Notes under the pieces: generated by a model | Database searches by the model: none | Told to the model about the DNA's origin: nothing | What the model saw: only the letters and a program-made list of their open reading frames with translations | In this document: in pieces, positions 18,657 through 43,730 of the stretch | How the letters are laid out: each line of letters begins with the position of its first letter | Numbering within the stretch: the first letter of the stretch is position 1 | Source of the DNA: Terriglobia bacterium | GTDB lineage: Bacteria > Acidobacteriota > Terriglobia > JAJPHL01 > JAPKYU01 | Direction: 5' to 3' | NCBI GenBank assembly: GCA_965206645.1 | Contig: CBDBKE010000004.1 | Span: 128,001 to 192,000 of the forward strand | Length of the DNA: 64,000 nt | Made by a program: the position numbers and the translations under genes

Positions 18657-18683
18657 TCGGCTCGGTGCATTTGTCCTGTTGAG

Positions 18684-18713: not shown

Positions 18714-18739
18714 ACGCGTAGCGCGGGTCAAGTCAGGCT

Positions 18740-21031: not shown

Positions 21032-21058
21032 AGTTCTTGTCAGAATAGGAATCGAGCA

Positions 21059-22015: not shown

Positions 22016-22017
22016 GC

Positions 22018-22791: not shown

Positions 22792-22792
22792 A

Positions 22793-23716
22793 ATGAGTAG
22801 TCGCGGGCGCACAGGACAAATCTGGATCGCCGTACTGGCCCTGCCGGTTCTGCTGGTGGCGGTGTATCCGCTTCAGGTGCGCATTGAGGAGCAGACACAG
22901 ACCGTGCAGCAGCAGAAGGAGGTGTTGCTTCTGCGTTCACGTGGGCTGCTGAAGAAGTTGAGTTTTGGTTACGACTCGCTGCTGTCGAACATCTATTGGA
23001 CGCGCGCCGTGCAGTACTACGGTGGTAAGCGGCGCGACCGGGATCCTAACTTCGAGCTGCTGGGGCCCCTGCTCGACTTGACCACCACGCTGGACCCACA
23101 CCTACTGGTTGCTTACAAGTTCGGCGCCATCTTCCTGGCGGAGCCGGCTCCCCGAGGTGCCGGGCGTCCTGACCTAGCAGTGGCCTTGATCCGCCGGGGC
23201 ATCGTAGCCAACCCCGAGGAATGGCGCCTGTGGCACGACCTTGGCTTTATCTACTACTGGGACATAAAGGACTACGAGAAAGCCTCCCAAGCCTACCGCC
23301 AGGGAAGCAAGCATCCCAAGGCCCGCGACTGGATGAGAGTGATGGCGGCCAAGATCGCCCAGGAGGGAGGCTCGCGGGAAACCTCGCGCTTCCTCTGGCG
23401 GGAAATCTACGAATCCACGAAGGACCCCAACATCCGCAAGAATGCCCTGGACCACCTGACTGGCTTGAAGGCGGAAGAGGATGTCGAACAACTGGAGAAG
23501 CTGGCGACGGACTTCAACAGTCGCTTTCGCCGGCTTCCGAGATCGGTGGCCGAAATGGTTGGGGCCGGAATGCTGCGGGGCCTGCCGATGGACCCGTCCG
23601 GCTACCCCTACATTCTGCGCCCGGACGGCAAGGTACACCTGCATCCTTCCAGCCCGGTAGTATCCGAGGTTCTCAGGCCGTTCCGGCCGAATTTACCCCC
23701 AAACGCCGGATTCTAG
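22793..23716 (+). CDS. Pilus-associated periplasmic TPR-like protein (PilG-like)
   Basis: N-terminal TM, then YWTRAVQYYG, TTLDPH, helical repeats and DPSGYPY. Follows the ABC pair, as in Myxococcus pilGHI-type modules. Confidence 0.6.
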   Translation: MSSRGRTGQIWIAVLALPVLLVAVYPLQVRIEEQTQTVQQQKEVLLLRSRGLLKKLSFGYDSLLSNIYWTRAVQYYGGKRRDRDPNFELLGPLLDLTTTLDPHLLVAYKFGAIFLAEPAPRGAGRPDLAVALIRRGIVANPEEWRLWHDLGFIYYWDIKDYEKASQAYRQGSKHPKARDWMRVMAAKIAQEGGSRETSRFLWREIYESTKDPNIRKNALDHLTGLKAEEDVEQLEKLATDFNSRFRRLPRSVAEMVGAGMLRGLPMDPSGYPYILRPDGKVHLHPSSPVVSEVLRPFRPNLPPNAGF

Positions 23717-26627: not shown

Positions 26628-27728
26628 TTACTGAAGAATCGGAAGGAAGGGGCGGTCAGCGATCTGTCGGTGGAAGGACTCGGCCCAGCGGCCCGGAACG
26701 GCGACAGAGCAAGTGGGGCAGCGGCCCTCCCGGGTCAGCCGGTAGTCACGGATGCGGTAGCCGTAACGCTCCACCAGCAGGTCGCCGCATGCCGGGCAAT
26801 AGGTGTTCTCCAGGGTGCCCACCCTCCCGGGCAGATTGCCGGCGTAGACGTAGCGCAGCCCGGCGCGCTTGCCGATCTGGGCGGCCCGAACCAGCGTCTG
26901 TGGCGGCGTGTCGTCCGGGTCCAGCATCTTGTAATCCTTGTGGAAAGCAGTGACGTGCCAGGGAATGTCGGGCGAGATGTCAGCTAGAAACTCGGCCATC
27001 CGGGTAAGTTCCTCATCCGAGTCATTGAAGCCGGGAATGACCAGGGTGACGATCTCCAGCCAGAAGCCCATCTGGTGAATGAGCCGGATGCTCTCCAGGA
27101 TCGGCTGCAGCCGCCCGCCCAGTTGGCGATAGTGGCGGTCATCGAAACTTTTCAGATCCACCTTGTAGAGGTCCACCCAGGGGCGGATGTATTCCAACAC
27201 CTGCGGGGTGGCGTTGCCGTTGGAGACAAAGCCGGTGAGCAGGCCAGCGGCGCGCGCCTCCTGGAAGACGGCCACAGCCCACTCGGCGGTGATCAGCGGC
27301 TCGTTGTAAGTGCTGACCACCGCGTCGCCTCCCATCTCGCGGGCAAGCTTCACCAATTGGGGCGGGCTGGTCAACTCAGGCGGCGCTACCGCACCGGGGT
27401 CGCGGATGGCCTGGGAAGTCACCCAGTTCTGGCAGTAGGAGCAGTGCAGGTCGCAGCCCAGCATGCCGAAGCTGAACGCCAGCGCGCCCGGCCGCACGTG
27501 GAAAAACGGCTTCTTCTCGATGGGATCGCACTGGATGCCGCCCACGTAGCCCCAGGGCACGTACAGTCGGCCGCCCCGGTTGAACCGCACCTTGCAGACT
27601 CCCGGCTGCCCCTCCGGAATGGGACACTGGTGGCCGCAGGCATAGCAGCGGATGCGGTTGCGCTCCAGTGGCTCCCACAAGACGCCTTCTCGCACGTGCT
27701 GGGCCAGGACTTCAGCCAGGGTGGACAT
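26628..27728 (-). CDS. amrS: AmmeMemoRadiSam system radical SAM enzyme
   Basis: N-terminal CxxCxxxC...C, DPIEKKPFFH, GCDLHCSYCQN (CxxxCxxC), TYNEP, YVYAGN and TYCPAC. Confidence 0.88.
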   Translation of the reverse strand: MSTLAEVLAQHVREGVLWEPLERNRIRCYACGHQCPIPEGQPGVCKVRFNRGGRLYVPWGYVGGIQCDPIEKKPFFHVRPGALAFSFGMLGCDLHCSYCQNWVTSQAIRDPGAVAPPELTSPPQLVKLAREMGGDAVVSTYNEPLITAEWAVAVFQEARAAGLLTGFVSNGNATPQVLEYIRPWVDLYKVDLKSFDDRHYRQLGGRLQPILESIRLIHQMGFWLEIVTLVIPGFNDSDEELTRMAEFLADISPDIPWHVTAFHKDYKMLDPDDTPPQTLVRAAQIGKRAGLRYVYAGNLPGRVGTLENTYCPACGDLLVERYGYRIRDYRLTREGRCPTCSVAVPGRWAESFHRQIADRPFLPILQ

Positions 27729-28750: not shown

Positions 28751-28828
28751 CGGGGCGTAGCTCAGCCTGGTTAGAGCGCGTGCCTTGGGCGCACGAGGCC
28801 GGAGGTTCGAATCCTCTCGCCCCGACCA
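28751..28828 (+). tRNA. tRNA-Pro (anticodon UGG)
   Basis: CGGGGCG/CGCCCCG acceptor stem, D arm GCTC..GAGC, anticodon arm CGTGC-CTTGGGC-GCACG, GTTCGAATC T loop and encoded CCA. Confidence 0.96.
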
Positions 28829-28850
28829 TTCCTTTCCGTGACTTGCCGGC

Positions 28851-30974
28851 TCACTCACCGATGCTCCAGGGTTTGCCTTCGAAGTGCGGCGGCAGCGGCA
28901 CGCCGAACAGGTCCAGCGCGGTGGGCGCAATGTCCAGCAGCGAGGGCCGTTCGCAGTGAATCTTTTTGTCCGAGAACAGCACGCCGGGGACCAGCCGAGG
29001 GTCTATGCAGTGGTCGCCACTCCAGGCCTTGCAGTTGTCCTGGAACACTTCACTGCCGATCGTGCCCGTCACAGAGTCCCAGGCGGCGCGATAGCCCTCG
29101 TTGTAGCCGACGATCAGGTCTGGCGCATTGTCTCGATAGGGGCCGGAAAAGACCTTGCCGCTGTCAAACATCTCACGGATGGCCACCCGGCCGGTTTGCG
29201 GATCCACCAGCCCGCCGAGCTTTTCGCACAATTCGCGCTTGAGTTCCTCAGTTTCTCGGCCCGCAGTGACGATCCCGCCACGCTCACGCCCCTTTTGGTT
29301 GATGTAAACGCCGCTGAGTCCGAGTGCGTAGGCACGGGTCCGCTGCCAGTCCACATTGCGCAGCCACTCGGCACCGGGCTGAGTGCCGTCCTGCAAGGCG
29401 AGATACTCGTTTCGCCAAAGCCAAGTGTTGAGGTTGACACCGCGCTCGAAGGACTTGAACCCGTGGTCAGAAATCACCAATAAAATGGACTCCTCATCCA
29501 TCTGCTGGAGTGTGCGACCGACCAGATCGTCCATCCGGCGATATAGTTCCTCGATGACGCCGCTGAACGGATTCGCTGCGCCGTCTTTGCCGTCGGCCGG
29601 ATGGCCGCTGTCCAGATAGCGCCAGAACATGTGCTGCACCCGGTCGGTAATATCAAACACGCAGACGCAAAGACCGCGCGGCGTCTTCTCCAGCGCGTCG
29701 AAGAACATGCGTTCCCGCTCTTCGTGAATCAGGTAGCACTGCCGGAGAAAGGCCTCCTCGTCGAGCACGCCTTCGTTCAGTGCCCAGGTATCTTCAGCCA
29801 GCCCCAGCGTGGCGTAGGGCCCCAGGAGCTTGGATAGATAGATCGAGTAGGTGAACGGGTGTGAGATCGGCAACGCAGGCTTTCCGGGATGGATGTTGAT
29901 GGGAGTGACGTAGAGCTCCAGGTGTGGCTCGAGTTCCTTCAAGTAGAAGCGGCAAATGCCGTGCACCTTGATGCCCAGACCGGCCTTGAACTTCAACTCG
30001 ACCCACTCGGAATACTTCCCCTTGCGCAAGGTGATGCGCTGTCTCTGGATCTCGATGTCCGCCTCGCTCCGGGCAGCGTCTGAACGCACACGGAACGGAA
30101 TGCGCAATTCGCTATGTCGCGTCTTCAACAAATGGTTCTCCGGGCCGGGAATGTAGGACCGGAACAGGCCGCCCTCGGACTGCAACCGGAAGCGCAGGCC
30201 GCCCTGCGGGCCTTCGGTAGTGCCGTCGCGCGTCGTGTAGAAAGAAAAGGTTCCCTGGCTGCCCTTCAGGTCCGGGACGCACATGCTCGCCAGCAACACG
30301 CCGGAGAATTTTTCGGCGGGAAAAGTAATCGGGACGCGAAGCACGGAGCAGAAAACGTCTGCCTCTGCCAGGTAGTGCCAGAAGGGCTTGGCCTTGCGCA
30401 GCAGCCTGCTACGAGGGCGGCCCAGCGGAATCGCGTACTTTCCCAGAGCAAGGCTCCGGCGCGGCGCCCGAATTTCGACCGAGGAGAGGTAGGGAAGATA
30501 GGTGGCGCAATCCCTGGCCAGAAAGTCGTAGATGTTGTGCTTGCCGGGATTGACGCCGGTTTGAAACGAGGACCAGGCTACCGGGGAAATCGGCGGGCAA
30601 GTAGTCTGCAAAGGGAGAAAGGTGCCTCGATCGCGTAGCGCTGCCAGATGAGGCAATTTGCCCTCTTGCATGTACCTTGCGGCCAGCTCGGGGTCCATGC
30701 CATCCAGGCCCAGAACGACCACCCGTCGCACGCGGGCTTTGCGAAGAACTTTGCGGCGGCGCAGCAGTCGGCGAAGCTGTCTCAGCGGCCAGCTCAACAG
30801 GGCGAACAGGGAATACAGGAACGCCAAGAACAGGGTCAAAAACGACGACAGGACCGCGAAGCCAGCCCCGGGTCCAACGTACCCCCAAGCTTCCCCGGGC
30901 CATAGCAACAGGGCAGCAAGCGTGCCTGCCAGCAGGCGTCCGGTACGCGAGGTCTTTTGGTGCCTCGAAATCAT
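28851..30974 (-). CDS. AlkP-superfamily (NPP/phosphodiesterase-like, COG3379-type) protein A with signal peptide, YVGPG motif and TM anchor
   Basis: Motifs LGLDG, PPISPVAWSSFQTG (Ser nucleophile position), DRVQH, SDHGF and WSGDH. Confidence 0.85.
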   Translation of the reverse strand: MISRHQKTSRTGRLLAGTLAALLLWPGEAWGYVGPGAGFAVLSSFLTLFLAFLYSLFALLSWPLRQLRRLLRRRKVLRKARVRRVVVLGLDGMDPELAARYMQEGKLPHLAALRDRGTFLPLQTTCPPISPVAWSSFQTGVNPGKHNIYDFLARDCATYLPYLSSVEIRAPRRSLALGKYAIPLGRPRSRLLRKAKPFWHYLAEADVFCSVLRVPITFPAEKFSGVLLASMCVPDLKGSQGTFSFYTTRDGTTEGPQGGLRFRLQSEGGLFRSYIPGPENHLLKTRHSELRIPFRVRSDAARSEADIEIQRQRITLRKGKYSEWVELKFKAGLGIKVHGICRFYLKELEPHLELYVTPINIHPGKPALPISHPFTYSIYLSKLLGPYATLGLAEDTWALNEGVLDEEAFLRQCYLIHEERERMFFDALEKTPRGLCVCVFDITDRVQHMFWRYLDSGHPADGKDGAANPFSGVIEELYRRMDDLVGRTLQQMDEESILLVISDHGFKSFERGVNLNTWLWRNEYLALQDGTQPGAEWLRNVDWQRTRAYALGLSGVYINQKGRERGGIVTAGRETEELKRELCEKLGGLVDPQTGRVAIREMFDSGKVFSGPYRDNAPDLIVGYNEGYRAAWDSVTGTIGSEVFQDNCKAWSGDHCIDPRLVPGVLFSDKKIHCERPSLLDIAPTALDLFGVPLPPHFEGKPWSIGE

Positions 30975-30984
30975 GGGAAGGGCG

Positions 30985-31803
30985 TTAGAACTGGGTTCTA
31001 GTCACGGCCTTCGCCGCTAGCGTCCAGACCGTTACAAGAACAAAAAATGGAATCAGCCAGTGCCCCCGGTATGGTCCCAACTCAATGCTGCGCGGCGGGT
31101 ACCTCACCCGAATTGTTTCCAACGGGCCATCGGCAGGCAAGGGGAGTTCCCCGGGATGTAGCAGCGCCTGGAGCCAGTTGCTCTGGAGACGTGCGGCGGA
31201 GAGCCGGGCGAGATCAGGCGCGACCGTCACCTGTTTTGTGAAGCTCTGGCCTGCGGCCATCACCTCGACAAGAAAGTCTCCGTAAGTTTCCACTCGAATG
31301 CGCCAACTGATTTCCTTCTGCTCCGGAATTCGCACCGGCGAGGCGGAAAGCGCCAATCCATTGGGCAGGCGAAGCACCACCTGGTCCGCCGAAACGCGCC
31401 CGTCCAGACGGGCTTGCAGTAGAAACGTGTCGCGCGGCTGGAGGGCAGCCCGGCCCAGGCGCAGCTCAACCTGCGCCAGCAGTAACACCATCGGCACCAG
31501 CATCACTGCCAGGGGCTTCAGGCAATGCCGCAAGTAGGTGAGCGTGCAACGCAGGATGCGCCCGTAAGACCGCAGCACCACTCCCAACTGGTCCTGATAC
31601 AGGCGGACCGCCAGCACGTGCGCTTGCAGTCGGTCTTTCACCTGCCGTATGGCCTGCTGGTTGGAGGCGTACCGGAATACCAACACCAGGAAGGCGCCAG
31701 TGAACAAGGAAGAGGCTGCCAAACCGTAGCGCGGGTCCAGCGTCCGGAAGGGCCAAAACAGAAGATCAAAGAGGCCATTCACAAGGGACAGAAAAAACGG
31801 CAT
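30985..31803 (-). CDS. Membrane protein with DUF106/EMC3-like (Oxa1 superfamily) layout and an inserted soluble domain
   Basis: Amphipathic N-terminal helix, TM1, basic coiled-coil hairpin, TM2 starting KPLAVMLVPMV, a beta-rich insert of about 125 aa, and TM3 starting GHWLIPFF. Confidence 0.5.
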   Translation of the reverse strand: MPFFLSLVNGLFDLLFWPFRTLDPRYGLAASSLFTGAFLVLVFRYASNQQAIRQVKDRLQAHVLAVRLYQDQLGVVLRSYGRILRCTLTYLRHCLKPLAVMLVPMVLLLAQVELRLGRAALQPRDTFLLQARLDGRVSADQVVLRLPNGLALSASPVRIPEQKEISWRIRVETYGDFLVEVMAAGQSFTKQVTVAPDLARLSAARLQSNWLQALLHPGELPLPADGPLETIRVRYPPRSIELGPYRGHWLIPFFVLVTVWTLAAKAVTRTQF

Positions 31804-31857
31804 CGGGGGCGCCTTGAACCGCGTTCCTCTTCCGGCGTGTGGCCGGCCAGCAACTAT

Positions 31858-32064
31858 TCACTCGATATAGCCCAGGCCTTGCAGCCGCTTTTTCACTTCT
31901 TCCTCAGGATCGCGGCCTTCTTCCTCCGAACCCAGGAGGCGGGCGACCTCTTTTTCCAGCAGGTGAGTGACGAACTCCTCCGCCGAGGCGTAGTCGGCCT
32001 TTTCGGCGCAGGTCGTCACCTTATCAAACAACTCGTCGTCAATCTTGATGCGCGTACCGAACAT
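31858..32064 (-). CDS. Small RHH/CopG-like protein with C-terminal RLQGLGYIE motif
   Basis: 68 aa with strong GAGGAG RBS. N-terminal beta-helix-helix pattern, acidic linker, and tail EEEVKKRLQGLGYIE. Confidence 0.75.
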   Translation of the reverse strand: MFGTRIKIDDELFDKVTTCAEKADYASAEEFVTHLLEKEVARLLGSEEEGRDPEEEVKKRLQGLGYIE

Positions 32065-32088
32065 GCTGTGTCTCCTCGGCGCGGCGGC

Positions 32089-34110
32089 CTAGTGTGAACC
32101 CGTTGATGGAGCCCCGAACAACGACCTGCCTTCCATGTTCTCTGGTCTGGCGACCTGAAATTCGGCCAGGATCGTGGGAGCCACATCCCGCAGCTCGGGT
32201 GATTCGGCCGCGATCTTTTTGTTGCTCAGCAGGACCCCCGGCACCAGCGCAGGCTCCACGCAATGGTCGCCGCTCCACGGCTCGGTATTGTCTTCCAACG
32301 TCACCCGGGAAACTCCTCCCAGCACAGAAGCCCAGCCTACCCGGTAGCCGCGCGCATAGCCAATGAGCAGGTCCGGCGCGTCGCGGACTTTCGGACCTGA
32401 ATACACCTCAGTCGCCTGGTGGGCCCGGGCCACCACAGGCGACCCGGTGAGCGGATCGCGCAGCTCCTCCAGGCGGGCTGCGATCTCCGCCCGCAGCGCC
32501 TGGGCTTGTGTTCCCCGAGGCACAATGCCGTAACGCTCCCGGCCCTGCAAGTTCAGATACAGGGCGTTTAGCCCCAGCCCATAGGCGCGCGTCCTAGACC
32601 AATCCACATCGCGTAGGAATTCGCTTTCGCCACGTTCCGTTCCCGGTTTCAGTGCCAGGTAGCCGTTTTCCAGTAGCCAGGCGTTTAGATTGAGGGAACG
32701 ATAATAGGGCGCGAAGCCGTGATCCGACACTACCAACAGGGTGCCATGCGGATCCAGTTTCTCCAATACCTTGCCCACAACCCGATCCATCTCCCGATAC
32801 AAGTCTTCGAGGACGCCACCGAAATCGGCTGCCAGTTGCGTTTCGTAAGCGGGATGGCGCTCGTCCATGGCCCGCCAGAGCATATGCGCATTCTGGTCCA
32901 AGGTGGAGAAATAGAAGAAAAACAGCCCGTCACGAAAGCGGCCGAGTTCGATATCAAAAATTCTTAGGCGCTCGTCCAGCACCATGCGTGCCTGCTGCAC
33001 GTATTCCTTATCGGTCCAGATGCCGCTGGAGAGAGCTTTGGTGTCTTCGGCGATCCCTTGCGTATAGAAGTAGCCGATTTGCTTGGACAGCTGACGCGCG
33101 TAGCGCTTGGGGGTAGACAAGGGCAAAGCCGGCCTCGAAGGATCTAGATTGATGGGGGTGACATACAGCTGAAACTGCGGACGCACCTGCTTCAGGTAAA
33201 ACTTGCAAATGCCCGCTACGCTCTCCAGATAGGGGATCAGCTCGAACGACAGCGGCACCCAATCGCTCCATTCTCCTTCCTCGAGAAGAATCTCCTGATC
33301 TTGAATCGCAATCTTGGCTGCCGGTTCCTGCGGATCGAGCCAAACGGCGAAGTTCACCGTCGCGGGAGGTTCACCCTGGCGAAACGGGTTGCGCGGGCCT
33401 TCCAGCCTTGCATCCACCCGCCCGCCCTCTACATCCACCGAGTAGATCCGCCCTCCGCTCACCGTGCCGGCCTCGACAAGCGGGTCGTCAGTGAAGAAGA
33501 AGAATGTCCCGTAGGTCCCCAAAAGGTCGGGAGTCCCCATGCCAGCGAACGTTCGTGCGTTCGACTCCACTGGGGGGAAGTTGGCGGGCATCCGAAGGAC
33601 GGTTGCAGGAATACCGTGGTCGTCCAAAACTTCCCAAAAGGCTTTCCCCTGCCGCAACAGAGTGACACGGCCGCCGGAAATGGGAACCACCCACTGGCCT
33701 AAGCGCAGGGTGTACTTGGGAGGTTCCACGCGGGAGGTTGAAAAGTAAGGAAGCAAAGTATCCGGATCGCGGTGGACGAAGTCAAAGATGCCGTGCACGC
33801 CCGGATTGGTGCCCGTGATCAGGTTGGACCAGGCCACCGGACTTTGCGGTGGAGTGCTGGTGCCCAGCCGGCGGAAGCTGCCGCTCGCGGCCAACTTGGC
33901 AAAATTGGGCAGCTTGCCTTCCTGCATATAGCGCTGAAGAAGTTCCGGGTCCATCCCATCGATTCCAAGCACGATCACCTGCTTGGCGGGCATGCCGTTT
34001 CCCCGGGGGGCAAGCCAGCATGCTGCGGCTCCCAAGGCAGCGGAGAGCACCAGGACCAGCGCCAGCAGCCTGGCCTCCCCTGAAACGCCTGTAAGCCTGC
34101 TCCGTATCAT
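32089..34110 (-). CDS. AlkP-superfamily protein B, exported (signal/possible lipoprotein)
   Basis: Hydrophobic signal ending LGAAAC; motifs LGIDG, PPQSPVAWSNLITG, DQNAH, SDHGF and WSGDH. Paralogue of protein A. Confidence 0.85.
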   Translation of the reverse strand: MIRSRLTGVSGEARLLALVLVLSAALGAAACWLAPRGNGMPAKQVIVLGIDGMDPELLQRYMQEGKLPNFAKLAASGSFRRLGTSTPPQSPVAWSNLITGTNPGVHGIFDFVHRDPDTLLPYFSTSRVEPPKYTLRLGQWVVPISGGRVTLLRQGKAFWEVLDDHGIPATVLRMPANFPPVESNARTFAGMGTPDLLGTYGTFFFFTDDPLVEAGTVSGGRIYSVDVEGGRVDARLEGPRNPFRQGEPPATVNFAVWLDPQEPAAKIAIQDQEILLEEGEWSDWVPLSFELIPYLESVAGICKFYLKQVRPQFQLYVTPINLDPSRPALPLSTPKRYARQLSKQIGYFYTQGIAEDTKALSSGIWTDKEYVQQARMVLDERLRIFDIELGRFRDGLFFFYFSTLDQNAHMLWRAMDERHPAYETQLAADFGGVLEDLYREMDRVVGKVLEKLDPHGTLLVVSDHGFAPYYRSLNLNAWLLENGYLALKPGTERGESEFLRDVDWSRTRAYGLGLNALYLNLQGRERYGIVPRGTQAQALRAEIAARLEELRDPLTGSPVVARAHQATEVYSGPKVRDAPDLLIGYARGYRVGWASVLGGVSRVTLEDNTEPWSGDHCVEPALVPGVLLSNKKIAAESPELRDVAPTILAEFQVARPENMEGRSLFGAPSTGSH

Positions 34111-34156
34111 TTCGCTGGTCTGCCAGGTTTCGCGCTTGCGTTCATTGGTATTGCCA

Positions 34157-35569
34157 TCATGCCCTACCGCTGAGGTCCGCCTGCTTGCTGACCAATCCTT
34201 TGACCAGCGAACGCCCCTGGACAGTCCCTGGGATTTTGTAGCCGGCCAGATCCAGCAGTGTCGGGGCGATATCCAGCAGGCCGGCGCCTTCGTAGGTGCC
34301 GCTCAGCGGACAGTTGGGAGCCACAAGCAGGAACATGCCGAACTGGGAGTGGTTGCAGGCGTCCGGACCCGTGTCGTTCTCCGCCACGTGCACCCGGCCA
34401 TGGCCTACGCTACCGATCGAGCGCCAGTACAGACCACCCAAGTGCACGATGAGGTCCGGCGCGACGTTCCGCACATGGCGGTAAATTTCCTGTGGTTTGA
34501 AAACCACCGAGTTCAGCGGCCGTTCCCGATCGTCGGTAAGCGCCTCGAATTCGACCTTCATCTCGTCCTGCAGGGCCTCATAGTCGGACGGCAGAACCAC
34601 ACCCTGCGGCTCGCGCCCCTTTACGTTAAAGAACACGCGGGCGTAGTAGCCGCCCTCGCTCCACGCTTTGGTTTTCGCCCAGTTCACCTTCAGCTTCTCA
34701 AAGGGCGTGACCGCGTTGGGAAACTCCTCTACCACCAGCAGCCCCTTGCGGATCAGCCACTCGTTGATCGCGAAGCCACCGTCCAACCGCTGGGCTCCGT
34801 GGTCCGACACCACCAGCAGAATTGTCTCGCGATCCAGCAACTCGACGACGGCGCCGAGTTGTTCGTCAATCCAACGATAGTATTCCGGAATGACACTCTC
34901 ATATGGGTTTCCTGCTTCGTAATGCCGGTGTTGTGAGTCAAAATATTGCCAGAAGCCATGGTGCACGCGGTCCAGGCCGATATCCACGAAGTGAAAATAG
35001 TCCCACTCCTGCTCTGCGAGCAGCCAGCGCACCACCTGCCATTGCTTCTGACTCATCCGGAAAATCTCTTGTTTCAGCCACTGCTTGTCCTTGGTGCGGA
35101 AGCCCTTGACGTCCACCGGGTATTCCCCCACCCGCTTGCGGATCTGGGCCTGGAGGCTGGCCGGGTAGGTGAAGGGGTCCCGGGTCGGGTCGGGTGTCAG
35201 GAAGCAGCCGATGCTGAGGCCGTGGACGCGCCGGGGCGGGTAGTTTGGTGGTACGCCCACCAGGATGGACCGCTTCCCCTGACGCGCCAAGTGATCCCAG
35301 ATGGCCGCCTGCTGGATAGAAGTGGAATTGGCAATGCTGAGCCGGCTGTAGGAGTGGTCGGTCCGGTTGCGGAAGCCGTAGACGCCGAGCGACCCTGGAT
35401 CCTGGCTCGTTGCCATGCACATCCAGGCCGGCACCGTGATGGGTGGAATGACGCTTTCCAGGCGCCCATACACACCCGCCTGCATCAGCCGTCGGATGTT
35501 GTGCAGCCGCTCGTCCCCGAAGATGATTTCCGGGGCGGCGCAGTCCAATCCCAGCACGCAGATTCTCAT
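34157..35569 (-). CDS. AlkP-superfamily protein C, cytoplasmic
   Basis: Starts directly at MRICVLGLDC with no signal peptide; motifs PPITVPAW (Thr nucleophile position), DRVHH, SDHGA and DACNH. Confidence 0.85.
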   Translation of the reverse strand: MRICVLGLDCAAPEIIFGDERLHNIRRLMQAGVYGRLESVIPPITVPAWMCMATSQDPGSLGVYGFRNRTDHSYSRLSIANSTSIQQAAIWDHLARQGKRSILVGVPPNYPPRRVHGLSIGCFLTPDPTRDPFTYPASLQAQIRKRVGEYPVDVKGFRTKDKQWLKQEIFRMSQKQWQVVRWLLAEQEWDYFHFVDIGLDRVHHGFWQYFDSQHRHYEAGNPYESVIPEYYRWIDEQLGAVVELLDRETILLVVSDHGAQRLDGGFAINEWLIRKGLLVVEEFPNAVTPFEKLKVNWAKTKAWSEGGYYARVFFNVKGREPQGVVLPSDYEALQDEMKVEFEALTDDRERPLNSVVFKPQEIYRHVRNVAPDLIVHLGGLYWRSIGSVGHGRVHVAENDTGPDACNHSQFGMFLLVAPNCPLSGTYEGAGLLDIAPTLLDLAGYKIPGTVQGRSLVKGLVSKQADLSGRA

Positions 35570-35839
35570 CGCTCGACCGGCGTCGGGCAGCGACCGGTGT
35601 CAGGCAACAAATTGACGCTCCCCTTTTCGCTGGAGTATGTTACTAGATTCCAAAGGGACGAATGGCCAGTAGAGGCAGAAATTCCCGGCGCACGATTGCG
35701 GTCGATTTTGAGGGGGTGATCGCCCAGTACGACGGCTGGAAGGGCCGGGGTGTGCTGGGCGGGCGCCAGTGAGGACTTTCTCGCCTCGGCTGTCTGAGTG
35801 CTGCAAGGCTCCGCTGTTGCGTCCCATTCCTGGAGGATC

Positions 35840-37042
35840 ATGTCCAACCGACCTCACGGTGGCAGGCTAATCAACCGCGTGCTGGAAGATCAGGCGCGCC
35901 AGAAGTGGCACGAGCGGGCCGAACGCCTGCCGCGCCTGCAGTTGAACTCGCGCCAGATCTCCGACGTCGAGCTGATCGCCATTGGCGCCTTCTCGCCGCT
36001 GGAGGGATTCATGGGCCAGCGCGACTACGAGAGCGTCCTGGCCCAGCAGCGGCTCACCAGCGGCCTCCCCTGGACCATCCCGGTTACCCTGGCAGTCGCT
36101 AAAGAAGAGGTCCAGCGACTCGGGGGGGCCGAGGAGGTGGCTCTGGCTGACGCGCAGGGCCACCTGCGCGCCGTGCTCCACCTCGAGGAGGTGTTCCAGT
36201 ATGACCGGCAGCGCGAAGCGCAGGCCGTGCTGCTGACCGACAGCGACCAGCACCCGGGTGTCCGCTACCTGCGCAGTGTCGGCGACTACTGCTTGGCGGG
36301 GCCCATCAGTCTGCTAGAGCGCTCCGACCGCGGACCCTTCGCTAAATACACGCTGGACCCGAAGGAAACCCGGTTCCTGTTCGATTACCGACGCTGGCGC
36401 ACGATCGTGGCCTTCCAAACGCGCAATCCCATTCACCGGGCTCACGAGTACATACTCAGATGCGCGCTGGAGACCGTCGATGGCCTGCTGCTCCACCCTC
36501 TGGTGGGCGCTACTCAGGAAGAGGACGTGCCCGCTGAGGTCCGCGTGGAGTGCTACCTGGCCTTGTTGCGTGACGCGCTGCCAGCGCGGCACTGCGTCCT
36601 GAGCCTGTATCCGGCGGCGATGCGTTACGCGGGTCCCCGCGAGGCGATCTTCCACGCCCTGGTCCGCAAGAACTATGGTTGTACCCACTTCATCGTTGGT
36701 CGCGATCATGCCGGGGTCGGCAATTTTTACGGACCCTATGACGCGCAGAGGAAATTTTTCGAATTTGAGCTGGGCGAGCTGGACATCACGCCCCTTTTCT
36801 TCGGCGCCACTTTTTACTGCAAGAAGTGCGGGCAAATCGCGTCGGAGAAGACCTGCCCGCACGGGGCGGAGGAGCGGCTGATTCTGAGCGGCACCAAAGT
36901 GCGCGAACTGCTCCGCGACGGCCAGAAGCTGCCGGTGGAGTTCACACGGCCTGAAGTGGGCGAAATCCTCCGTGAGGCCTACCGCCAGAAGGAGCTCGGC
37001 AGTCAAGTCGCTGGCCGCGAGGCAGGCAATCCCAACAGATGA
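35840..37042 (+). CDS. sat: Sulfate adenylyltransferase (ATP sulfurylase)
   Basis: Motifs PHGGRL, FSPLEGFM, FQTRNPIHRAHEY, MRYAGPREA, HFIVGRDHAG and FTRPEV. GGAGG RBS. Confidence 0.96.
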   Translation: MSNRPHGGRLINRVLEDQARQKWHERAERLPRLQLNSRQISDVELIAIGAFSPLEGFMGQRDYESVLAQQRLTSGLPWTIPVTLAVAKEEVQRLGGAEEVALADAQGHLRAVLHLEEVFQYDRQREAQAVLLTDSDQHPGVRYLRSVGDYCLAGPISLLERSDRGPFAKYTLDPKETRFLFDYRRWRTIVAFQTRNPIHRAHEYILRCALETVDGLLLHPLVGATQEEDVPAEVRVECYLALLRDALPARHCVLSLYPAAMRYAGPREAIFHALVRKNYGCTHFIVGRDHAGVGNFYGPYDAQRKFFEFELGELDITPLFFGATFYCKKCGQIASEKTCPHGAEERLILSGTKVRELLRDGQKLPVEFTRPEVGEILREAYRQKELGSQVAGREAGNPNR

Positions 37043-37662
37043 ATCCCAACATGAGAAACAAAGGGTTTACGCTGTGGTTCACCGGTCTGCCGTGCTCAGG
37101 TAAATCCACGCTGGCGCAACTGGTCGGCGAAGAACTGGCGCGCCGCGGTCGTGCCGTCGAGGTTCTGGACGCCGAAGTCGTCCGTACCCATTTGTGCAAG
37201 AACCTGGGCTTCAGCAAGGAGGATCGCGACACGAACATCCGGCGCATCGGTTTCCTCTGCCAGATCCTCAGTAGGCATGGTGTGGCGGCCATCGCTGCCG
37301 CCATCTCCCCCTACCGAGCCACCCGTGAGGAAGTTCGTGCCACCATTGAGAATTTTGTGGAGATATACGTGAATGCTCCCGTGGAAATTTGTAGCCAGCG
37401 CGATGTTAAGGGTTTGTACAAGCGAGCACTCACTGGCGAGATCAAGAACTTCACCGGAGTTGATGATCCCTACGAAGCGCCGCTCAATCCGGAATTGGTG
37501 CTCGAGACGGACAGGGAACCTCCGGCCGCCTCGGCCGCTCGCGCTCTGGCCAAGCTGGAGCAACTGCAGCTGATTGAACCGCCCGGGGCGCCTGCTGACC
37601 GGCCGGAGGAGGCGGAAAAGATCCGTGCCCGGCTGATCGCCTTTGGCTACATTTCGCAGTAA
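37039..37662 (+). CDS. cysC: Adenylyl-sulfate (APS) kinase with C-terminal RLIAFGYI extension
   Basis: Motifs WFTGLPCSGKST, LGFSKEDRDTNIRRIG, RDVKGLY and FTGVDDPYEAP. Start overlaps the sat stop codon. Confidence 0.95.
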   Translation: MNPNMRNKGFTLWFTGLPCSGKSTLAQLVGEELARRGRAVEVLDAEVVRTHLCKNLGFSKEDRDTNIRRIGFLCQILSRHGVAAIAAAISPYRATREEVRATIENFVEIYVNAPVEICSQRDVKGLYKRALTGEIKNFTGVDDPYEAPLNPELVLETDREPPAASAARALAKLEQLQLIEPPGAPADRPEEAEKIRARLIAFGYISQ

Positions 37663-38336: not shown

Positions 38337-39722
38337 CTAAAGGTTCAAAGCGCGGGCCTTAGCCAGCAGGGTCTTGTAGGCGATCCCCAGTTTTTCGGCG
38401 GCTTTCATCTTATTCCAGCGCGCTTCCTTGAGGGCCCCCAGAATCTTCGTCTTTTCCACCAGGGTCACGGCCCGCCGGCTGACTTCCTCCAGCGGTCCTT
38501 CCCAGTTGAACGGCTCGGGGCCCAGCTCCGGCTCGGAGCGAGCAACTGCCGGGGCCTGCAGAACCAGGTCTTCGGGCTGGATGCAGGCGGCGGCCCGGTC
38601 GCAAAGAATGACGGCGCGCTCGATGCTGTTCTGCAATTCCCGGACGTTGCCCGGCCAGTAGTAGGCCAGCAGGGCCTTCTCAGCTTCCGGCGAAAGCCGC
38701 AGGTCACCCTTGCGGAATTCGCCGGCGTAGTGGTGCAGGAAAGCACGGGCCAGTAGCAAGATGTCGGCGTCGCGCTCGCGCAACGGCGGGATGGTGATGG
38801 GAACGGTCGAGATACGGAAGTACAGGTCTTCCCGGAAACTCTTTTCCGCGATCGCCTGGCGCAGGTCGCGGTTGGTGGCGACCAGAATGCGCACGTCCAC
38901 CTCGATCCTCTGCAGGCCGCCCACCCGCTCGAAGGCGCGCTCTTCCAGTACACGCAGAATCTTGGACTGCACCGCCAGCGGCAGCTCACCGATCTCGTCC
39001 AGGAAGATGGTGCCGTGGTGGGCCAACTCAAACTTGCCGATCTTGCGCGCCCCAGCTCCGGTGTAGGCACCCTTTTCGTGCCCGAACAGTTCATTCTCCA
39101 CCAGTCCCTCAGGGATGGCGGCACAGTTCAGGGCCACAAACAGCCTGTCTTTGCGGGAGCTCAGGGAGTGGATGGCACGGGCGAATAGTTCTTTGCCGGT
39201 TCCGCTTTCGCCCAACAGCAGGACAGTGGTTTCCGTTGGAGCAACGCGCTGCACGTCGCGGGCGACCGCTACCATCGAAGGATGCTCGGCGATGATACGG
39301 GGAAACCCATGCCGGACTGCCGCTTCCTCCTTCAGCAGCAGGTTCTCGCGCACCAGTTGCCTCTGGAGCAGGGCGCGCTCCAGCAGCAGCTTTAGGTGTT
39401 CCAGGTCCACCGGCTTCTGGATGAAGTCGTAGGCTCCGCCCTTCATCGCCTGCACGGCTTCCTCGATCGAGCCGTAGGCGGTCAGCAGCACGACCGGCAT
39501 GCCGGGGTCCATCTCCTGGGCCTGGCGAAGCAGTTCCAGGCCGGAGCGGCCTGGCAGCTTCAGGTCTGTGAGCAGCAGGGAGAAGGGTTGGGAATGGAGC
39601 AAGTGAGAGGCCTGAGTTCCGTCACCAGCGTCCTCGACGCGGAACCCAGCTTTTTGCAGCGCCAGCTTCAGCATCTGGCGGAGTTCGGCCTTGTCCTCAA
39701 CCAGCAGGAGGGGTTCGGCCAT
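38337..39722 (-). CDS. Sigma54-dependent response regulator (NtrC/PilR-like)
   Basis: REC domain (LLVEDK, TDLKLPG, KP), GESGTGKE, ELFGHEKGAYTGA, FLDEIGE, WPGNVREL and a Fis-type HTH. Confidence 0.93.
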   Translation of the reverse strand: MAEPLLLVEDKAELRQMLKLALQKAGFRVEDAGDGTQASHLLHSQPFSLLLTDLKLPGRSGLELLRQAQEMDPGMPVVLLTAYGSIEEAVQAMKGGAYDFIQKPVDLEHLKLLLERALLQRQLVRENLLLKEEAAVRHGFPRIIAEHPSMVAVARDVQRVAPTETTVLLLGESGTGKELFARAIHSLSSRKDRLFVALNCAAIPEGLVENELFGHEKGAYTGAGARKIGKFELAHHGTIFLDEIGELPLAVQSKILRVLEERAFERVGGLQRIEVDVRILVATNRDLRQAIAEKSFREDLYFRISTVPITIPPLRERDADILLLARAFLHHYAGEFRKGDLRLSPEAEKALLAYYWPGNVRELQNSIERAVILCDRAAACIQPEDLVLQAPAVARSEPELGPEPFNWEGPLEEVSRRAVTLVEKTKILGALKEARWNKMKAAEKLGIAYKTLLAKARALNL

Positions 39723-39727
39723 CCCGA

Positions 39728-40303
39728 TTAGCGGGCCCAACCGGGCGGTAGTCCCTTGCGGCGCAACTCCTCTTCGAGGTCGGCGATGGCTTTCCGGGCG
39801 GCCGCAATGGCAGCCTTTTGCTCTTCGAGCTCCTGTTGGCGGGCGGTGAGTTCGGCGCGGGCGGTTTGCTCGCGAAGCGCAACGTTAGGGTCGGAGTAAA
39901 ACTGCACGTTGGCCATGTTGAATTCGCGCTGCAGCACCTCCAGTCTCCGCTCCTCGAGGGTGAGGTTCTCACGCAGCTTGCCGGCCCTCTCGCGGTACTC
40001 CTTTTCTAGTTCGGCCCGGGACTTCTTGCCTTCTGCCGGTTCCGCTGTTTTGTCTTCTTTTGCTTTTTCCCCAGGCTTGGCTTTCGTCTCAGTTGTGACC
40101 GCAGCGGTGCTCAAGCGGCTTGCGCGTGGCAGGGTGTCGTTCGTGTAGACACGGGTGGCCTTGGGCTGCCTAGCCTTTTTCGCCCGTGCCCGGCGAGCCA
40201 ACTCGCCGAGCGACTGCGCCGAAGCGGTCGCCGCCAGCAACAGCGCTACCATCAGGACCAGCATTTGGAAAACTCGCCCGAGATGCTTATTCATAAAAAC
40301 CAT
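39728..40303 (-). CDS. Secreted coiled-coil protein
   Basis: Signal peptide ending ASA|QSLGELAR, RVYTNDTL motif and a long coiled coil. Confidence 0.7.
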   Translation of the reverse strand: MVFMNKHLGRVFQMLVLMVALLLAATASAQSLGELARRARAKKARQPKATRVYTNDTLPRASRLSTAAVTTETKAKPGEKAKEDKTAEPAEGKKSRAELEKEYRERAGKLRENLTLEERRLEVLQREFNMANVQFYSDPNVALREQTARAELTARQQELEEQKAAIAAARKAIADLEEELRRKGLPPGWAR

Positions 40304-40419
40304 CCTTTAGACGCCGTCATGCGTGCCGTAACCAAGATCGCAGCCCAAATTCTCGACCCGCATTCTCGACTAAGCCGAGTTTAGCGCTCGCAGTGGCGCA
40401 AATCAAGGAAACGCGCTGC

Positions 40420-41874
40420 TCAGGTGCCACCGCCTGCACCTGATGGAGCCGGAGCGACTGAGGCCACCAGCGGCAGCGTCACCGTAAAGGTGGTCCCACC
40501 GCCAGCCGCGCTTGCCACCTGGATCTTCCCGTTGTGGTTCACCACAATCTTATGGACGAGCGCCAGCCCCAAGCCGGTTCCCTCGTTCTTGGTGGTGAAG
40601 AAAGGAATAAAGACTTTATCGAGGTTCTCCGGGGGAATCCCCGGCCCATTGTCGGTGAACCGCAGCCGGAGGATCGGACTGCTCTCGGTTTGTTCCAACT
40701 GTCCATCCACAAGAATGCGTCCGGGCCGACCGCCCTGGGCAATCGCTTCGCAGCCGTTACGCAGCAGGTTGGCAAAACACTGCCGCAGCAGGGTCTGGTC
40801 GGCCGTCACGGTAGGGAACTCGCCGGCCAACTCCAGCGTCACCCCAAGGAACTCGCCTTGCCCGGCAATTTCCTGAAAGCTCCGCTCGATCAGCTCACGC
40901 GTAGAAACGTCGCAGGCGACTAGGTTCAGCGGGCGCGAGAAATTCAAAAAGTCATTGACGACCTGGGTGAGGAACTGGGTCTCGCCGACCAGGCGGGCGG
41001 CATGCTGGCGTGCGGTCTCCAGACTCTCTTCCTGACGTATCAATTGTCCGTAGCCGGAAATTGTGGCCAGCGAGTTCTTGAATTCATGAGCGATTCCGGC
41101 CGACATCTCCCCCAGCGCGGCCAGGCTTTCCTTCAGCCGTACCTGCTGTTGCAGGGCGGCCATCTCCGTGAGGTCGCTGAGCAGGCATATGACGCCGCCC
41201 TCCCGGCTTTCCTGCTGAATCGGCGCCATGCCCACCCCCAGAACCTTATTTTCGCCCGTGGGAGCGCGGTAGGGCACCGTGATGCGATGGAACCCCTGGC
41301 CTGTGTGCAAGCAGGTTTCCAGCATCTCGGCCAGCGCCGAGGTGGCGTGGGACAGCTCTCGGGTCTGTCCCAGGACCTCGCGGAAACTCCGCCCCTCCAG
41401 GAGCTGGTGTCCCAGCATCTCCTTCGCAGCCGGATTCGACCCGGTGATGAGTTCCTGCGCGCTGACCATCAGCACTCCGGTAGCCAGGTTGTGCAGGATG
41501 GCCGCGGTGAGCTGAGCGCTCTGCTGGGCTCGCTGGCGCTCGGCGTGGTGCAACCGCTCCAGTTCCTTTTCCTGCTCGCGCAGACGCTGGATGACGCCCT
41601 GGAAGGCAGCCATAGCGAAGGCGGAATCGTCCGCAGTCCTGCCGGTACCCGACTGCGGTTCGAGGCTGGGTTTGGCGTCAACTTTCTTGAAAACCCGGCG
41701 CACCAGCAGCATCGCCACCACCAGCAGAACCGCCGCCACCACCGACAACGCCAGCAAATTGATGAGTAGCGACCGGTGCTCATCGCCGCCCGCCCCGGGG
41801 CTGTCGGGGAATACTGCTTGCAGCCAAGTTAAAAAGAGAGAAACAGGTACCAATGCACAATCTCCCTGCCCCAC
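40420..41874 (-). CDS. PAS-containing sensor histidine kinase (PilS-like); start uncertain
   Basis: H-box AGIAHEFKNSL, N-box NLLRNG, DNGPG, FIPFFTTK and GTGLGL. Single N-terminal TM. Confidence 0.9.
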   Translation of the reverse strand: MGQGDCALVPVSLFLTWLQAVFPDSPGAGGDEHRSLLINLLALSVVAAVLLVVAMLLVRRVFKKVDAKPSLEPQSGTGRTADDSAFAMAAFQGVIQRLREQEKELERLHHAERQRAQQSAQLTAAILHNLATGVLMVSAQELITGSNPAAKEMLGHQLLEGRSFREVLGQTRELSHATSALAEMLETCLHTGQGFHRITVPYRAPTGENKVLGVGMAPIQQESREGGVICLLSDLTEMAALQQQVRLKESLAALGEMSAGIAHEFKNSLATISGYGQLIRQEESLETARQHAARLVGETQFLTQVVNDFLNFSRPLNLVACDVSTRELIERSFQEIAGQGEFLGVTLELAGEFPTVTADQTLLRQCFANLLRNGCEAIAQGGRPGRILVDGQLEQTESSPILRLRFTDNGPGIPPENLDKVFIPFFTTKNEGTGLGLALVHKIVVNHNGKIQVASAAGGGTTFTVTLPLVASVAPAPSGAGGGT

Positions 41875-42653
41875 ATCGCCGAGACCAGCGCCGTAAGACC
41901 CAGAAAGGTTCCGAAGGGCAATTCGTACTGGCTGTCCTTTCCCCCGAGCAATATGTAGGAGCCGCCAATCACCGTGCCGAGCAGCGAGCCCAGGAAGATG
42001 GTCAGCAGTGCCAACGCGGGCCCCAGGAAGGTGCCCACCAGCGCCATTAGCTTCACGTCGCCAAAGCCCAGGCCCTCGCGATGACGCAGCCGCTTGTAGG
42101 CTTCCGCAACAAACCAGAGTACGCCCGCACCGACAAGGCCACCCAACAGGGCATCGGCCAGCGACAGCAGCCGCAAAGAGTCCGGCCGCAGGCCTGCCAC
42201 TCGCAGCAGTGCCGCTGCGCTACCGTCGCCCACCGGGACCAGCAGGCTGAAAACCAGCCCGGCCGCCATTCCCGGAAATGTGAGGACATCGGGGAGCAAG
42301 CGATCGGCAAGATCAATGAACATCAGCGCAATGGTTAGCGAGGCGAACAGGGCGTATTTGAGGAACGGCAATCCGAAGCCGAAGACGGCGGCCAGGATTG
42401 CAAAGACAGCTCCGGTCAGCAACTCCACCATGAAGTACCGGACAGAGATCGGCACCCCGCAAGAGCTGCAACGCCCTCGCAGCGCCAGGTAGCTGGCCAG
42501 AGGAATGTTCTCGTACCAGGCGATCTGGTGGCCGCAGTGCGGGCACCGCGAGCGGGGAGCCACAACGGATTCCCCGCGCGGCACGCGGTGGATGACCACA
42601 TTCAGGAAGCTGCCGATAACCAGGCCGAAGAGGAATGCCGAAAGTGGGAACAC
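41829..42653 (-). CDS. pilD: Prepilin peptidase/N-methyltransferase
   Basis: Motifs GSFLNVVIHRVP, two CxxC, ENIPL, IDLADRLLPD, GFGDVKL and LPFGTFL. Confidence 0.93.
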   Translation of the reverse strand: MFPLSAFLFGLVIGSFLNVVIHRVPRGESVVAPRSRCPHCGHQIAWYENIPLASYLALRGRCSSCGVPISVRYFMVELLTGAVFAILAAVFGFGLPFLKYALFASLTIALMFIDLADRLLPDVLTFPGMAAGLVFSLLVPVGDGSAAALLRVAGLRPDSLRLLSLADALLGGLVGAGVLWFVAEAYKRLRHREGLGFGDVKLMALVGTFLGPALALLTIFLGSLLGTVIGGSYILLGGKDSQYELPFGTFLGLTALVSAMWGREIVHWYLFLSF

Positions 42654-42692
42654 GTCTGACGCGCGAATTGTCCTTGCTTGTAACCCCTCAGT

Positions 42693-43730
42693 TCAACTCA
42701 GACTCCGAAGGGCCTCCAGGTACACGCGCTCCGAAGCTTCGGCCATTATATCATCCGTTGCCCGAGCCTCAACGAACTGGCGTGCCCGGCGACCCATGGC
42801 TGCCGCCAGTTCCCGTTCCGCCAGTAGCTTTTCCAGACCCGCGCCCACTTCGGCGGCCTGGTTCCCCACCAGCAGCCCGGTTTCACCCTCGAGCACAATC
42901 TCCGGCAGGCCGCCGACGTTGCTGGCGACCACAGGCAGGCCGTGGGCCATGGCCAGAAGCGCCGCCGAGCCCAGCCCTTCGGAGTCTGACAGGTGCACAA
43001 ACGCGTCCAGCGCGAACAGGAACGGGGAGATATCGTCTTCAGGACGGAGGAAGTGAATGTTGCTGGCTCCGGCGAAGGCTCGGGGCCGGGTTAAGAGATC
43101 TGCCGTATCGGTGGAAGTGATCAGCAGATGCATTCGCTGGCGACCCTCTGCGGCCTCCAGTAGCGGCAGGATCGGCTTCTCGCGCAGGCTGGTCAACGTC
43201 CCGGCGACGAAGGTCTCGGCGGGGAGATTCCAGCGGCGGCGAAATGCCGCGCGCTGCTCGCCGCGCTGGGTCAGGACGGGCAGGGAAACGCCATCGTGGA
43301 CTACCGTAATGCGTTCCTGTGGGATGCCGGCCGAACGCAATTGACGCGCCACGTAGTCGGACACGGCAATGTAGTGTGCAGCGCGTGCGTATTTCCAGCG
43401 CGAAAGCCTGCCGCGTCCCACTGGAAAGCTGACCCGCCGCGAGACCACTAGCGGTGCCCGCCTGCGCCGCAGGACGGCCGCCGTGTGCGAAGCGGCATCG
43501 TGCGCGTGAATCAGGTCGGCAGGGAAGCCACTCCCGGGAGGCAGACGCCAGCCCAGGCGTGAGGGTTCAACGGCGAAGCCGGCGCGCCGCGCCCGCTCGA
43601 GCAGTGGAGATCCGGGCCGCGCCAGCAGTTGCTGGCGGTGCCCGCGCCGGCTTAGCGCCTGCATCAGGAGCAATACCTGCCACTGGCCGCCGCGCAACTG
43701 GCGCCCGCTGTCCAGGTGAAGGATGTTCAT
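42693..43730 (-). CDS. GT4 family glycosyltransferase
   Basis: Motifs RGGQWQ, DLIHAH, EGLGSAALLAMAHGLPVVASNVGGLPE and ETGLLV. Confidence 0.85.
   Translation of the reverse strand: MNILHLDSGRQLRGGQWQVLLLMQALSRRGHRQQLLARPGSPLLERARRAGFAVEPSRLGWRLPPGSGFPADLIHAHDAASHTAAVLRRRRAPLVVSRRVSFPVGRGRLSRWKYARAAHYIAVSDYVARQLRSAGIPQERITVVHDGVSLPVLTQRGEQRAAFRRRWNLPAETFVAGTLTSLREKPILPLLEAAEGRQRMHLLITSTDTADLLTRPRAFAGASNIHFLRPEDDISPFLFALDAFVHLSDSEGLGSAALLAMAHGLPVVASNVGGLPEIVLEGETGLLVGNQAAEVGAGLEKLLAERELAAAMGRRARQFVEARATDDIMAEASERVYLEALRSLS

Follow-up and report, generated by a model that had tools for sequence, protein, structure and literature searches.

Two alkaline phosphatase (AlkP)-fold proteins of Halobacterium salinarum, Agl30 (VNG1056C) and Agl31 (VNG1057C), are needed for glycan sulfation, as established by deletion and heterologous expression (PMC11980604), and Agl7 (HVO_2046) of Haloferax volcanii contributes to the sulfation of DolP-hexose (PMC3892788). 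The Agl30/Agl31 paper places both proteins near sulfatases and gives neither a mechanism nor a sulfate donor, with 3'-phosphoadenosine 5'-phosphosulfate (PAPS) mentioned 0 times (PMC11980604). We analyzed a window of 64,000 nucleotides from a Terriglobia bacterium (contig CBDBKE010000004.1, positions 128,001 to 192,000) and identified a seven-gene locus in which the sulfate-activation genes sat and cysC are divergent from an operon in the order C-B-small-TM-A, encoding three AlkP-superfamily enzymes (A, B, and C), a small ribbon-helix-helix (RHH)-like protein, and a protein with three transmembrane helices (the TM protein). The system likely performs sulfation, and we lean toward reading it as a PAPS-fed covalent sulfate relay to the periplasm.

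A second group of described systems, the MBOAT-SGNH-type tyrosine shuttles, includes DltB/DltX/DltD. In PatA/PatB, a Tyr shuttle for acetyl groups, a short C-terminal peptide with an invariant Tyr carries the activated group from a cytoplasm-fed to an extracytoplasmic enzyme (PMC12148441). Our locus resembles the shuttles in an invariant Tyr within a short terminal motif and, if the proposed relay holds, in the joining of cytoplasm-fed and extracytoplasmic enzymes. The shuttles differ in carrying acyl groups and in using MBOAT and SGNH folds; a Pfam scan of the operon found no MBOAT or SGNH/DltD family, and the motif here sits on a soluble tail that moves between at least 5 kinds of host protein and for which carrying is our proposal. 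With Agl30 and Agl31, of which one is membrane-bound and one soluble, the locus shares an AlkP-superfamily fold used, here probably, for sulfation; however, A, B, and C belong to the nucleotide pyrophosphatase/phosphodiesterase (NPP) branch, and no Oxa1-like partner, RHH protein, or periplasmic twin is described for Agl30/Agl31. By analogy, the system would work like Tyr-shuttle group transfer and like Agl30/Agl31 and be a member of neither. In most relatives, the position that C holds here in the module is filled by a classical PAPS-dependent P-loop sulfotransferase (PF13469/PF00685), which is unrelated in fold. The locus is real and conserved, and we found no description of the system in the papers searched, a set mostly outside subscription journals.

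Enzyme C, sulfate activation, and P-loop sulfotransferases

We surveyed the best 80 of 209 C-encoding loci and identified sat or cysC within 10 kb of C in 32 of them, in several arrangements. Across the phylum we sampled 301 genomes evenly; C was encoded in 40 of them at an E-value under 1e-60, and sat or cysC was adjacent to C in 22 of 29 further phylum-wide loci with 1.5-kb flanks. The gene-neighborhood check proposed in the first-pass annotation of this DNA thus returned conserved linkage to sat/cysC. Further, 150 distant representatives included Sat-C, C-pyruvate kinase-Sat, and CysC-C-tail fusions, the last ending in the C-terminal tail described below, along with fusions of C to a nucleotidyltransferase and to GT2. 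A PF00459 gene, read as cysQ (the phosphatase of 3'-phosphoadenosine 5'-phosphate, PAP), was present in 25 of the 80 C loci.

The membrane module, scored by its TM gene, was identified in 86 of the 301 sampled genomes, with 56 of these encoding a P-loop sulfotransferase only, 11 encoding C only, 0 encoding both, and 19 encoding neither. Beside the module in 80 metagenome loci, the sulfotransferase (approximately 200 aa, PF13469) was found in 17 and C in 9, with both in 0 and neither in 54. Because the two never co-occur in TM genomes, C probably does the job of a PAPS sulfotransferase and replaces it. This exclusivity is our strongest argument both for that role of C and for a module that handles sulfate. 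A Fisher test of C versus sulfotransferase gave 2e-6, a value that we discount, as related genomes are not independent. A quick tree was built from 70 TM proteins out of the 86, comprising every C-type protein (11), 41 of 57 sulfotransferase-type proteins, and 18 with neither; on it the C label needs 6 changes, of which strongly supported branches force only 1, with 3 forced for the sulfotransferase. Of the genomes with neither feeder, 14 group together in a single divergent branch, and in one the sulfotransferase gene is truncated where the contig ends.

The small protein co-occurred with the TM protein in 72, with B in 65, and with A in 50 of 80 metagenome loci, and with sat/cysC in only 7; many of the contigs are short, and among loci of 10 kb or more the count is 5 of 29. 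C belongs to a PAPS-side module, and A, B, the small protein, and the TM protein form a membrane module, the feeder of which is more commonly a P-loop sulfotransferase than C. In close relatives of C, the commonest build combines a small membrane peptide with the motif YxGPDQ (59 of 80 loci), an A/B-like enzyme, and a tailed C, and a membrane-anchored sulfatase-fold protein was present in 35 of 80 loci. The relay put forward in the first pass for the three enzymes is partly supported, by the linkage, the fusions, and the alternation of C with a sulfotransferase; its view of the trio is too narrow, as the enzymes divide between two modules and are not one fixed unit.

The window holds neither a PAPS or adenosine 5'-phosphosulfate (APS) reductase nor a P-loop sulfotransferase, from which it had been argued that PAPS has no recognizable consumer. 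Genome-wide, the absence stands for the sulfotransferase, since the genome (97.9% complete) yielded no match to PF13469, to PF00685, or to a profile of the small sulfotransferase, and fails for the reductase, as cysH is encoded on another contig (G000:C2:69951-70640). The sat and cysC genes in the window are the only copies found in the genome, and cysH rules out the orphan-PAPS argument. The cysH product passes the general cysH models, narrowly misses the APS-reductase cut-off (231.5 versus 235.3), and widely misses the PAPS cut-off (185 versus 254). It carries CC..CxxC cysteines, the pattern of APS-using reductases. Because this genome has cysH and only one copy each of sat and cysC, Sat also serves assimilation; CysC may not be needed for it. 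In this region (G000:C2:69125-70640; L081:7126-8641), cysH has a gene for a hydrophobic 266-aa protein before it and two LysR-like regulators after it.

Enzymes, tail, and membrane protein

All three enzymes match PF01663 (99, 114, and 138 bits; cut-off 23); PF00884 is below its cut-off for C and unmatched in A and B, and none of the three matches PF13469 or PF00685. The motifs PPISPVAW, PPQSPVAW, and PPITVPAW share one alignment position, which bears out the Ser/Ser/Thr nucleophiles read in the first pass in place of CxPxR. The formylglycine motif C/SxPxR occurs in none of A, B, and C, which have PPxS/TxxAW instead, and a formylglycine sulfatase reading is ruled out by these motifs. In 103 C sequences, D9, T45, D200, H204, D256, H257, and H407 are conserved at 90% or more, and the metal and nucleophile columns of A and B align as in C, with Ser as nucleophile. 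A two-metal ligand set with a Thr/Ser nucleophile is the NPP pattern, and judged by alignment A, B, and C keep this site in full. The model of a tailed C homologue (predicted local distance difference test, pLDDT, 95) matched NPPs in Foldseek at an E-value of about 1e-15, with ENPP5, ENPP1, Xac NPP, and PhnA as best matches at 11-16% identity; sequence searches found no solved relative at an E-value under 0.05. C shares fold and site with the NPP/PhnA branch, whose JGI family name is 'predicted AlkP superfamily phosphohydrolase/phosphomutase' (presumably COG3379), and differs in its low identity to solved members and in its genomic ties to sulfate activation. The case for sulfur chemistry rests on genomic context.

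Topology was read from the sequence and from homologues. C has no hydrophobic stretch. A lipobox-like LxxC is seen in many homologues of B and a conventional signal peptide in others, and B is predicted to be exported, probably as a lipoprotein. A has a signal peptide, YVGPG, one transmembrane helix, and a basic stretch, which predicts a cytoplasmic catalytic domain. The N-terminal Tyr of A is present in 30 of 32 distinct motif matches, and in the other architecture the free YxGPDQ peptide fills the place of A residues 32-59. The C family is large, with 12,478 clusters at 50% identity matching C. The closest relative of C in Natrinema (L083:9011-11305) has no tail and lies behind an inorganic pyrophosphatase with no sulfur gene near, and haloarchaeal relatives match C at 23-28% identity. 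Many genomes, whichever feeder they use, encode a fourth paralogue, C' (approximately 25% identical to C; L105:4322-5632 and L244-L253), located immediately before A or flanked by cysC and A; C' can coexist with the sulfotransferase, and this genome lacks it.

In the first-pass annotation, the shared C-terminal tail went unremarked and the TM protein unidentified. One motif, E..[IV]..RL..[LF]GY, closes both the small protein and CysC; of this motif, L61, G63, L64, G65, and Y66 of the small protein are invariant in 44 of 44 aligned homologues. We identified the tail in 126 of the 301 sampled genomes. It follows a second exclusivity pattern: in 79 scorable loci out of 80, the tail was on C only in 67 and on CysC and/or the small protein with a tail-less C in 9, with 0 having both, 2 having neither, and 1 with C cut off. 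Stand-alone CysC was tailed in 7 of 7 loci with a tail-less C and in 0 of 3 with a tailed C, and fused Sat-CysC proteins were tail-less in 18 of 18. Other hosts include a second tailed RHH family that adjoins C in other families of the phylum (21 bits versus a PF01402 cut-off of 20.5), AlkP and sulfatase-like proteins of haloarchaea that are encoded in a glycan cluster on a plasmid (L082), and a sulfatase-TPR protein near a related module, in which the tail is internal. A DUF2061 membrane domain is fused to the tail at L122:1723-2019, and 266-aa proteins ending in KLRSLGYM, putatively CysD, lie near the module at L226:16605-17408 and L238:16477-17352; the tail may have originated in them, or they may be one more of its hosts. 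In this genome the first tail pattern found 2 tails and missed a third, as did the tail profile. The third ends an exported PF00884 protein (G000:C4:724925-726463, minus strand; L224:12926-14464) that has the LGY tail and no C/SxPxR motif and is a candidate periplasmic end point of the relay.

After exclusion of 27 representatives shorter than 400 aa, 123 remained, and of these, 17 of 24 with a tail and 9 of 99 without one keep at most 1 of three catalytic motifs. Catalytically dead C copies keep the tail, and therefore the tail works apart from its host's own catalysis. Copies that lack metal ligands or the nucleophile and have an intact tail (L068, L071, L075, P0185-P0187, P0192, P0193, and P0201) are possible pseudoenzyme scaffolds. 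A Tyr ends the motif in 248 distinct tails, with 0 Phe, 1 Asp, and 2 Leu, under a Tyr-blind pattern, the small-protein tails having been found partly with a Tyr-containing one. These counts were not accepted as proof of chemistry, given that search pattern and other tyrosines that are equally invariant. Folding of C with the CysC tail scored 0.54 (runs 0.40, 0.69, and 0.54) versus 0.01 for the best of 3 controls, the mark being one attained by 116 of 157 solved pairs and by 2 of the 215 mismatched ones, with 18 solved pairs and both mismatches at or below 0.60; the runs agreed in at least 77% of contacts with a partner pLDDT of at least 58, which weakly suggests that the tail binds C. In the folded C with its own tail, the tail is a helix with a pLDDT of about 75, and the tail profile had no real match in the PDB. 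In single-protein scans the small protein had no Pfam or NCBIfam match; its Atlas neighbors are named CopG family, the nearest having PF01402 in 28% of members (score 0.88).

Single-protein scans likewise found no Pfam or NCBIfam match for the TM protein. A profile of 39 homologues had MJ0480, the archaeal DUF106 'YidC', as its sole match in the PDB (E-value 9e-10), with a weak colinear second segment at the last helix, and PF01956 was weakly matched in 8 of the 39 family members (best E-value 0.0013) and not by the window protein alone. A wide structure search with the TM model had as its top match 7tut_8, a 177-residue multipass-translocon chain that we take to be TMCO1 (Z 10.3, root-mean-square deviation 4.5, 136 aligned residues), and YidC 3wo7 matched over the whole span at Z 7.8, both values falling in the range where helical bundles can match by chance. 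Foldseek with the same model returned no match at an E-value of 0.001, only Ig-like rows and no Oxa1 protein. The model (pLDDT 89.8) comprises a surface helix, TM1, a cytoplasmic hairpin, TM2, an Ig-like periplasmic domain, and TM3, and without the Ig-like domain this order is the Oxa1-superfamily layout as given in bioRxiv 10.1101/2020.12.20.422553. S32 in TM1 and W249 before TM3, which may belong to a hydrophilic groove, are conserved, and the same paper describes such residues for archaeal YidC. On this evidence the TM protein is a DUF106/EMC3/TMCO1-type Oxa1-superfamily protein as judged by profile and layout. It shares with MJ0480/Ylp1 (PDB 5c8j) the surface helix H0, the cytoplasmic hairpin between TM1 and TM2, and a TM3 with a conserved Trp, and differs in being bacterial, operon-dedicated, additional to YidC, and equipped with an Ig-like periplasmic insert. 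It is a dedicated copy, because the genome has a separate, ordinary YidC elsewhere. We saw no EMC6/Elp1-type partner in the loci, and no genome-wide search was made for one.

Proposed relay and competing explanations

In the relay that we propose, Sat and CysC would make PAPS, and C, tethered to CysC via the RLxxLGY tail, would take the sulfuryl group on Thr45 and release PAP. A on the cytoplasmic face and B on the periplasmic face would be held at the dedicated Oxa1-family protein and would pass the sulfuryl group across the membrane as covalent Ser adducts, with the tail on the small RHH-like protein linking both modules as a docking helix or a Tyr-O-sulfate carrier. B would then sulfate an envelope acceptor, directly or via exported tailed sulfatase-fold proteins, so that the order would run from PAPS to C-Thr, the tail, A-Ser, across at the Oxa1-like protein, B-Ser, and the envelope acceptor. 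That the tail Tyr is itself the covalent carrier is a tentative element. In a broader version, which we find doubtful, the tail would be a general sulfotyrosine carrier that C or the P-loop enzyme loads, A would take the group over and load the Tyr of its own YxGPG, this Tyr would cross in the groove of an Oxa1-family protein converted from an insertase to group transfer, and B would reload periplasmic tails; the tailed periplasmic sulfatase-fold proteins would in that case, just as doubtfully, be sulfotransferases.

Several observations weigh against the relay. The fold and all metal ligands are of the NPP phosphodiesterase type, which attacks phosphorus, and modeled fold alone would predict that attack. 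Among the 80 C loci, 48 have no sat or cysC in the stretch covered, and assimilation alone could keep the single sat and cysC of a cysH-bearing genome. The exclusivity of C and sulfotransferase is clean but rests on few independent events, with 10 of 11 C-type modules in one branch of 19 rows; 3 genomes lacking the TM gene hold both, and 19 TM genomes have neither feeder under these queries. The commonest architecture of close C relatives lacks B, the TM protein, and the RHH protein, and loci L017 and L043 have a tail-less C with no tail nearby. Y25 of the small protein and Y90 of the TM protein are as invariant as the tail Tyr, and no acceptor gene is conserved beside the module in the related loci examined.

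The best surviving alternative, which we judge unlikely, is sulfation without a trans-membrane relay: the enzymes would work separately, each on a different acceptor within the compartment where it resides, the Oxa1-like protein would only insert or anchor A, and the tail would be a docking or inhibitory helix capping the active site against futile PAPS hydrolysis. Agl30 and Agl31 act on different sugars and seemingly independently (PMC11980604), and Oxa1-family proteins are insertases. The predicted binding of the tail to C fits docking as well as carrying, and the CysC tail is simply explained as a tether. An RHH domain with a C-terminal helix is also the build of RelB-type antitoxins. However, exported B would be left without a PAPS supply, as no transporter is conserved in the module, and A, B, the TM protein, and the small protein stay together while the feeder is swapped. 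The presence of Tyr in 248 distinct tails and of Phe in none, in a set found in part with a Tyr-containing pattern, also speaks against this alternative.

NPP-type phosphorus chemistry is improbable. C would hydrolyze PAPS or APS as pool control, or perform nucleotidyl or phosphodiester transfer, and the link to sulfur genes would be regulatory. The structural matches to ENPP5, ENPP1, Xac NPP, and PhnA, the intact two-metal ligand set, the pyrophosphatase neighborhood of the Natrinema relative with no sulfur gene near, and a human nucleotide pyrophosphatase that degrades PAPS, known here from a reference title in PMC8038981, all fit this account, yet a hydrolase is not expected to alternate with a sulfotransferase or to fuse to Sat and CysC, and the periplasmic twin and the tail on dead copies are left unexplained. 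Sulfur scavenging, with B, A, and C as formylglycine-independent sulfatases freeing sulfate for Sat and CysH, is the least probable of all: it would suit the sole sat/cysC with cysH elsewhere, the divergent shared promoter region, and locus L118, in which sat-cysC, the module, and cysH/sulfite reductase are adjacent, but the tail is on the PAPS maker CysC, no Sat protein seen carries it, relatives have a PAPS-consuming sulfotransferase in the place of C, CysH has the cysteines of APS users and scores nearer the APS than the PAPS cut-off, and two ordinary C/SxxxR sulfatases are encoded elsewhere in the genome.

Genome setting and implications

The seven open reading frames lie where the first pass had placed them (Table 1), and its 270-bp gap holds for a sat start codon at 35840 (ATG); a GTG in the same frame lies at 35798. 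The locus is not a misassembly, because a contig from a separate study covers 28801-37236 with 17 differences. The genome is 4.4 Mb, and its closest relatives are 96-97% identical in C with identical gene order (L001 and L002). As to RNA, every gene is partly covered by contigs from 3 runs of a single study, a result that neither shows transcription nor ranks the genes.

Table 1. Features of the locus, with positions in the window and strand
Feature	Position	Strand	Description
A	28851-30974	(-)	707 aa; PF01663, Ser nucleophile; signal peptide, YVGPG, one transmembrane helix, NPP-fold domain predicted to be cytoplasmic
A residues 32-59	30798-30881	(-)	Conserved Tyr (YxGPG) at predicted new N-terminus, with transmembrane helix
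TM	30985-31803	(-)	272 aa; DUF106/EMC3/TMCO1-like (Oxa1-superfamily) protein with 3 transmembrane helices
Small	31858-32064	(-)	68 aa; RHH/CopG-like, RLxxLGY C-terminus
Tail of small protein	31861-31905	(-)	Residues 54-68
B	32089-34110	(-)	673 aa; PF01663, Ser nucleophile, predicted exported, probably lipoprotein
C	34157-35569	(-)	470 aa; soluble NPP-fold enzyme, tail-less here, candidate PAPS sulfotransferase
Divergent intergenic region	35570-35839		270 bp; short two-copy repeat across C start
sat	35840-37042	(+)	Sulfate adenylyltransferase; NCBIfam cut-off passed
cysC	37039-37662	(+)	APS kinase with C-terminal extension; NCBIfam cut-off passed
Tail on CysC	37606-37659	(+)	Last 18 residues; motif shared with small protein

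A tRNA-Pro(TGG) gene at 28751-28828, convergent with the operon and ending 22 bases from the A stop, is a possible integration site, and a DDE transposase (PF13701) lies at 14076-15470. The regions 15729-23716 and 38337-44620 around the locus encode two membrane TPR proteins, an ABC transporter, a two-component pair, a prepilin peptidase, and GT4/GT2 glycosyltransferases; these neighbors could provide the acceptor, and their linkage does not recur in other loci. A pilin or glycan acceptor was not adopted: the prepilin peptidase and two glycosyltransferases are 4-7 kb off, yet none recurs in related loci. A radical SAM gene (26628-27728) was not adopted as a maturase, being of the AmmeMemoRadiSam type and lying beyond the tRNA.

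How prokaryotes sulfate molecules beyond the cytoplasm, in compartments that lack PAPS, is for the most part an unanswered question, and for the AlkP-fold sulfotransferases of haloarchaea neither donor nor mechanism is known. The locus offers a testable route, with a candidate non-P-loop PAPS sulfotransferase (C) and a short motif open to single-residue mutation. It also provides a bacterial example of a DUF106/TMCO1-type Oxa1 protein whose role is separate from that of YidC, a point that matters for insertase evolution, and the tail provides a rule for re-annotating the large C family. If the tail were a sulfotyrosine carrier, many bacterial and haloarchaeal proteins that bear it and are annotated as Ser/Thr 'sulfatases' or 'phosphodiesterases' would instead carry out sulfation, and the question of the Agl30/Agl31 donor might be answered in the same way. 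If the relay is true, it would be a hitherto undescribed way of cell-surface sulfation.

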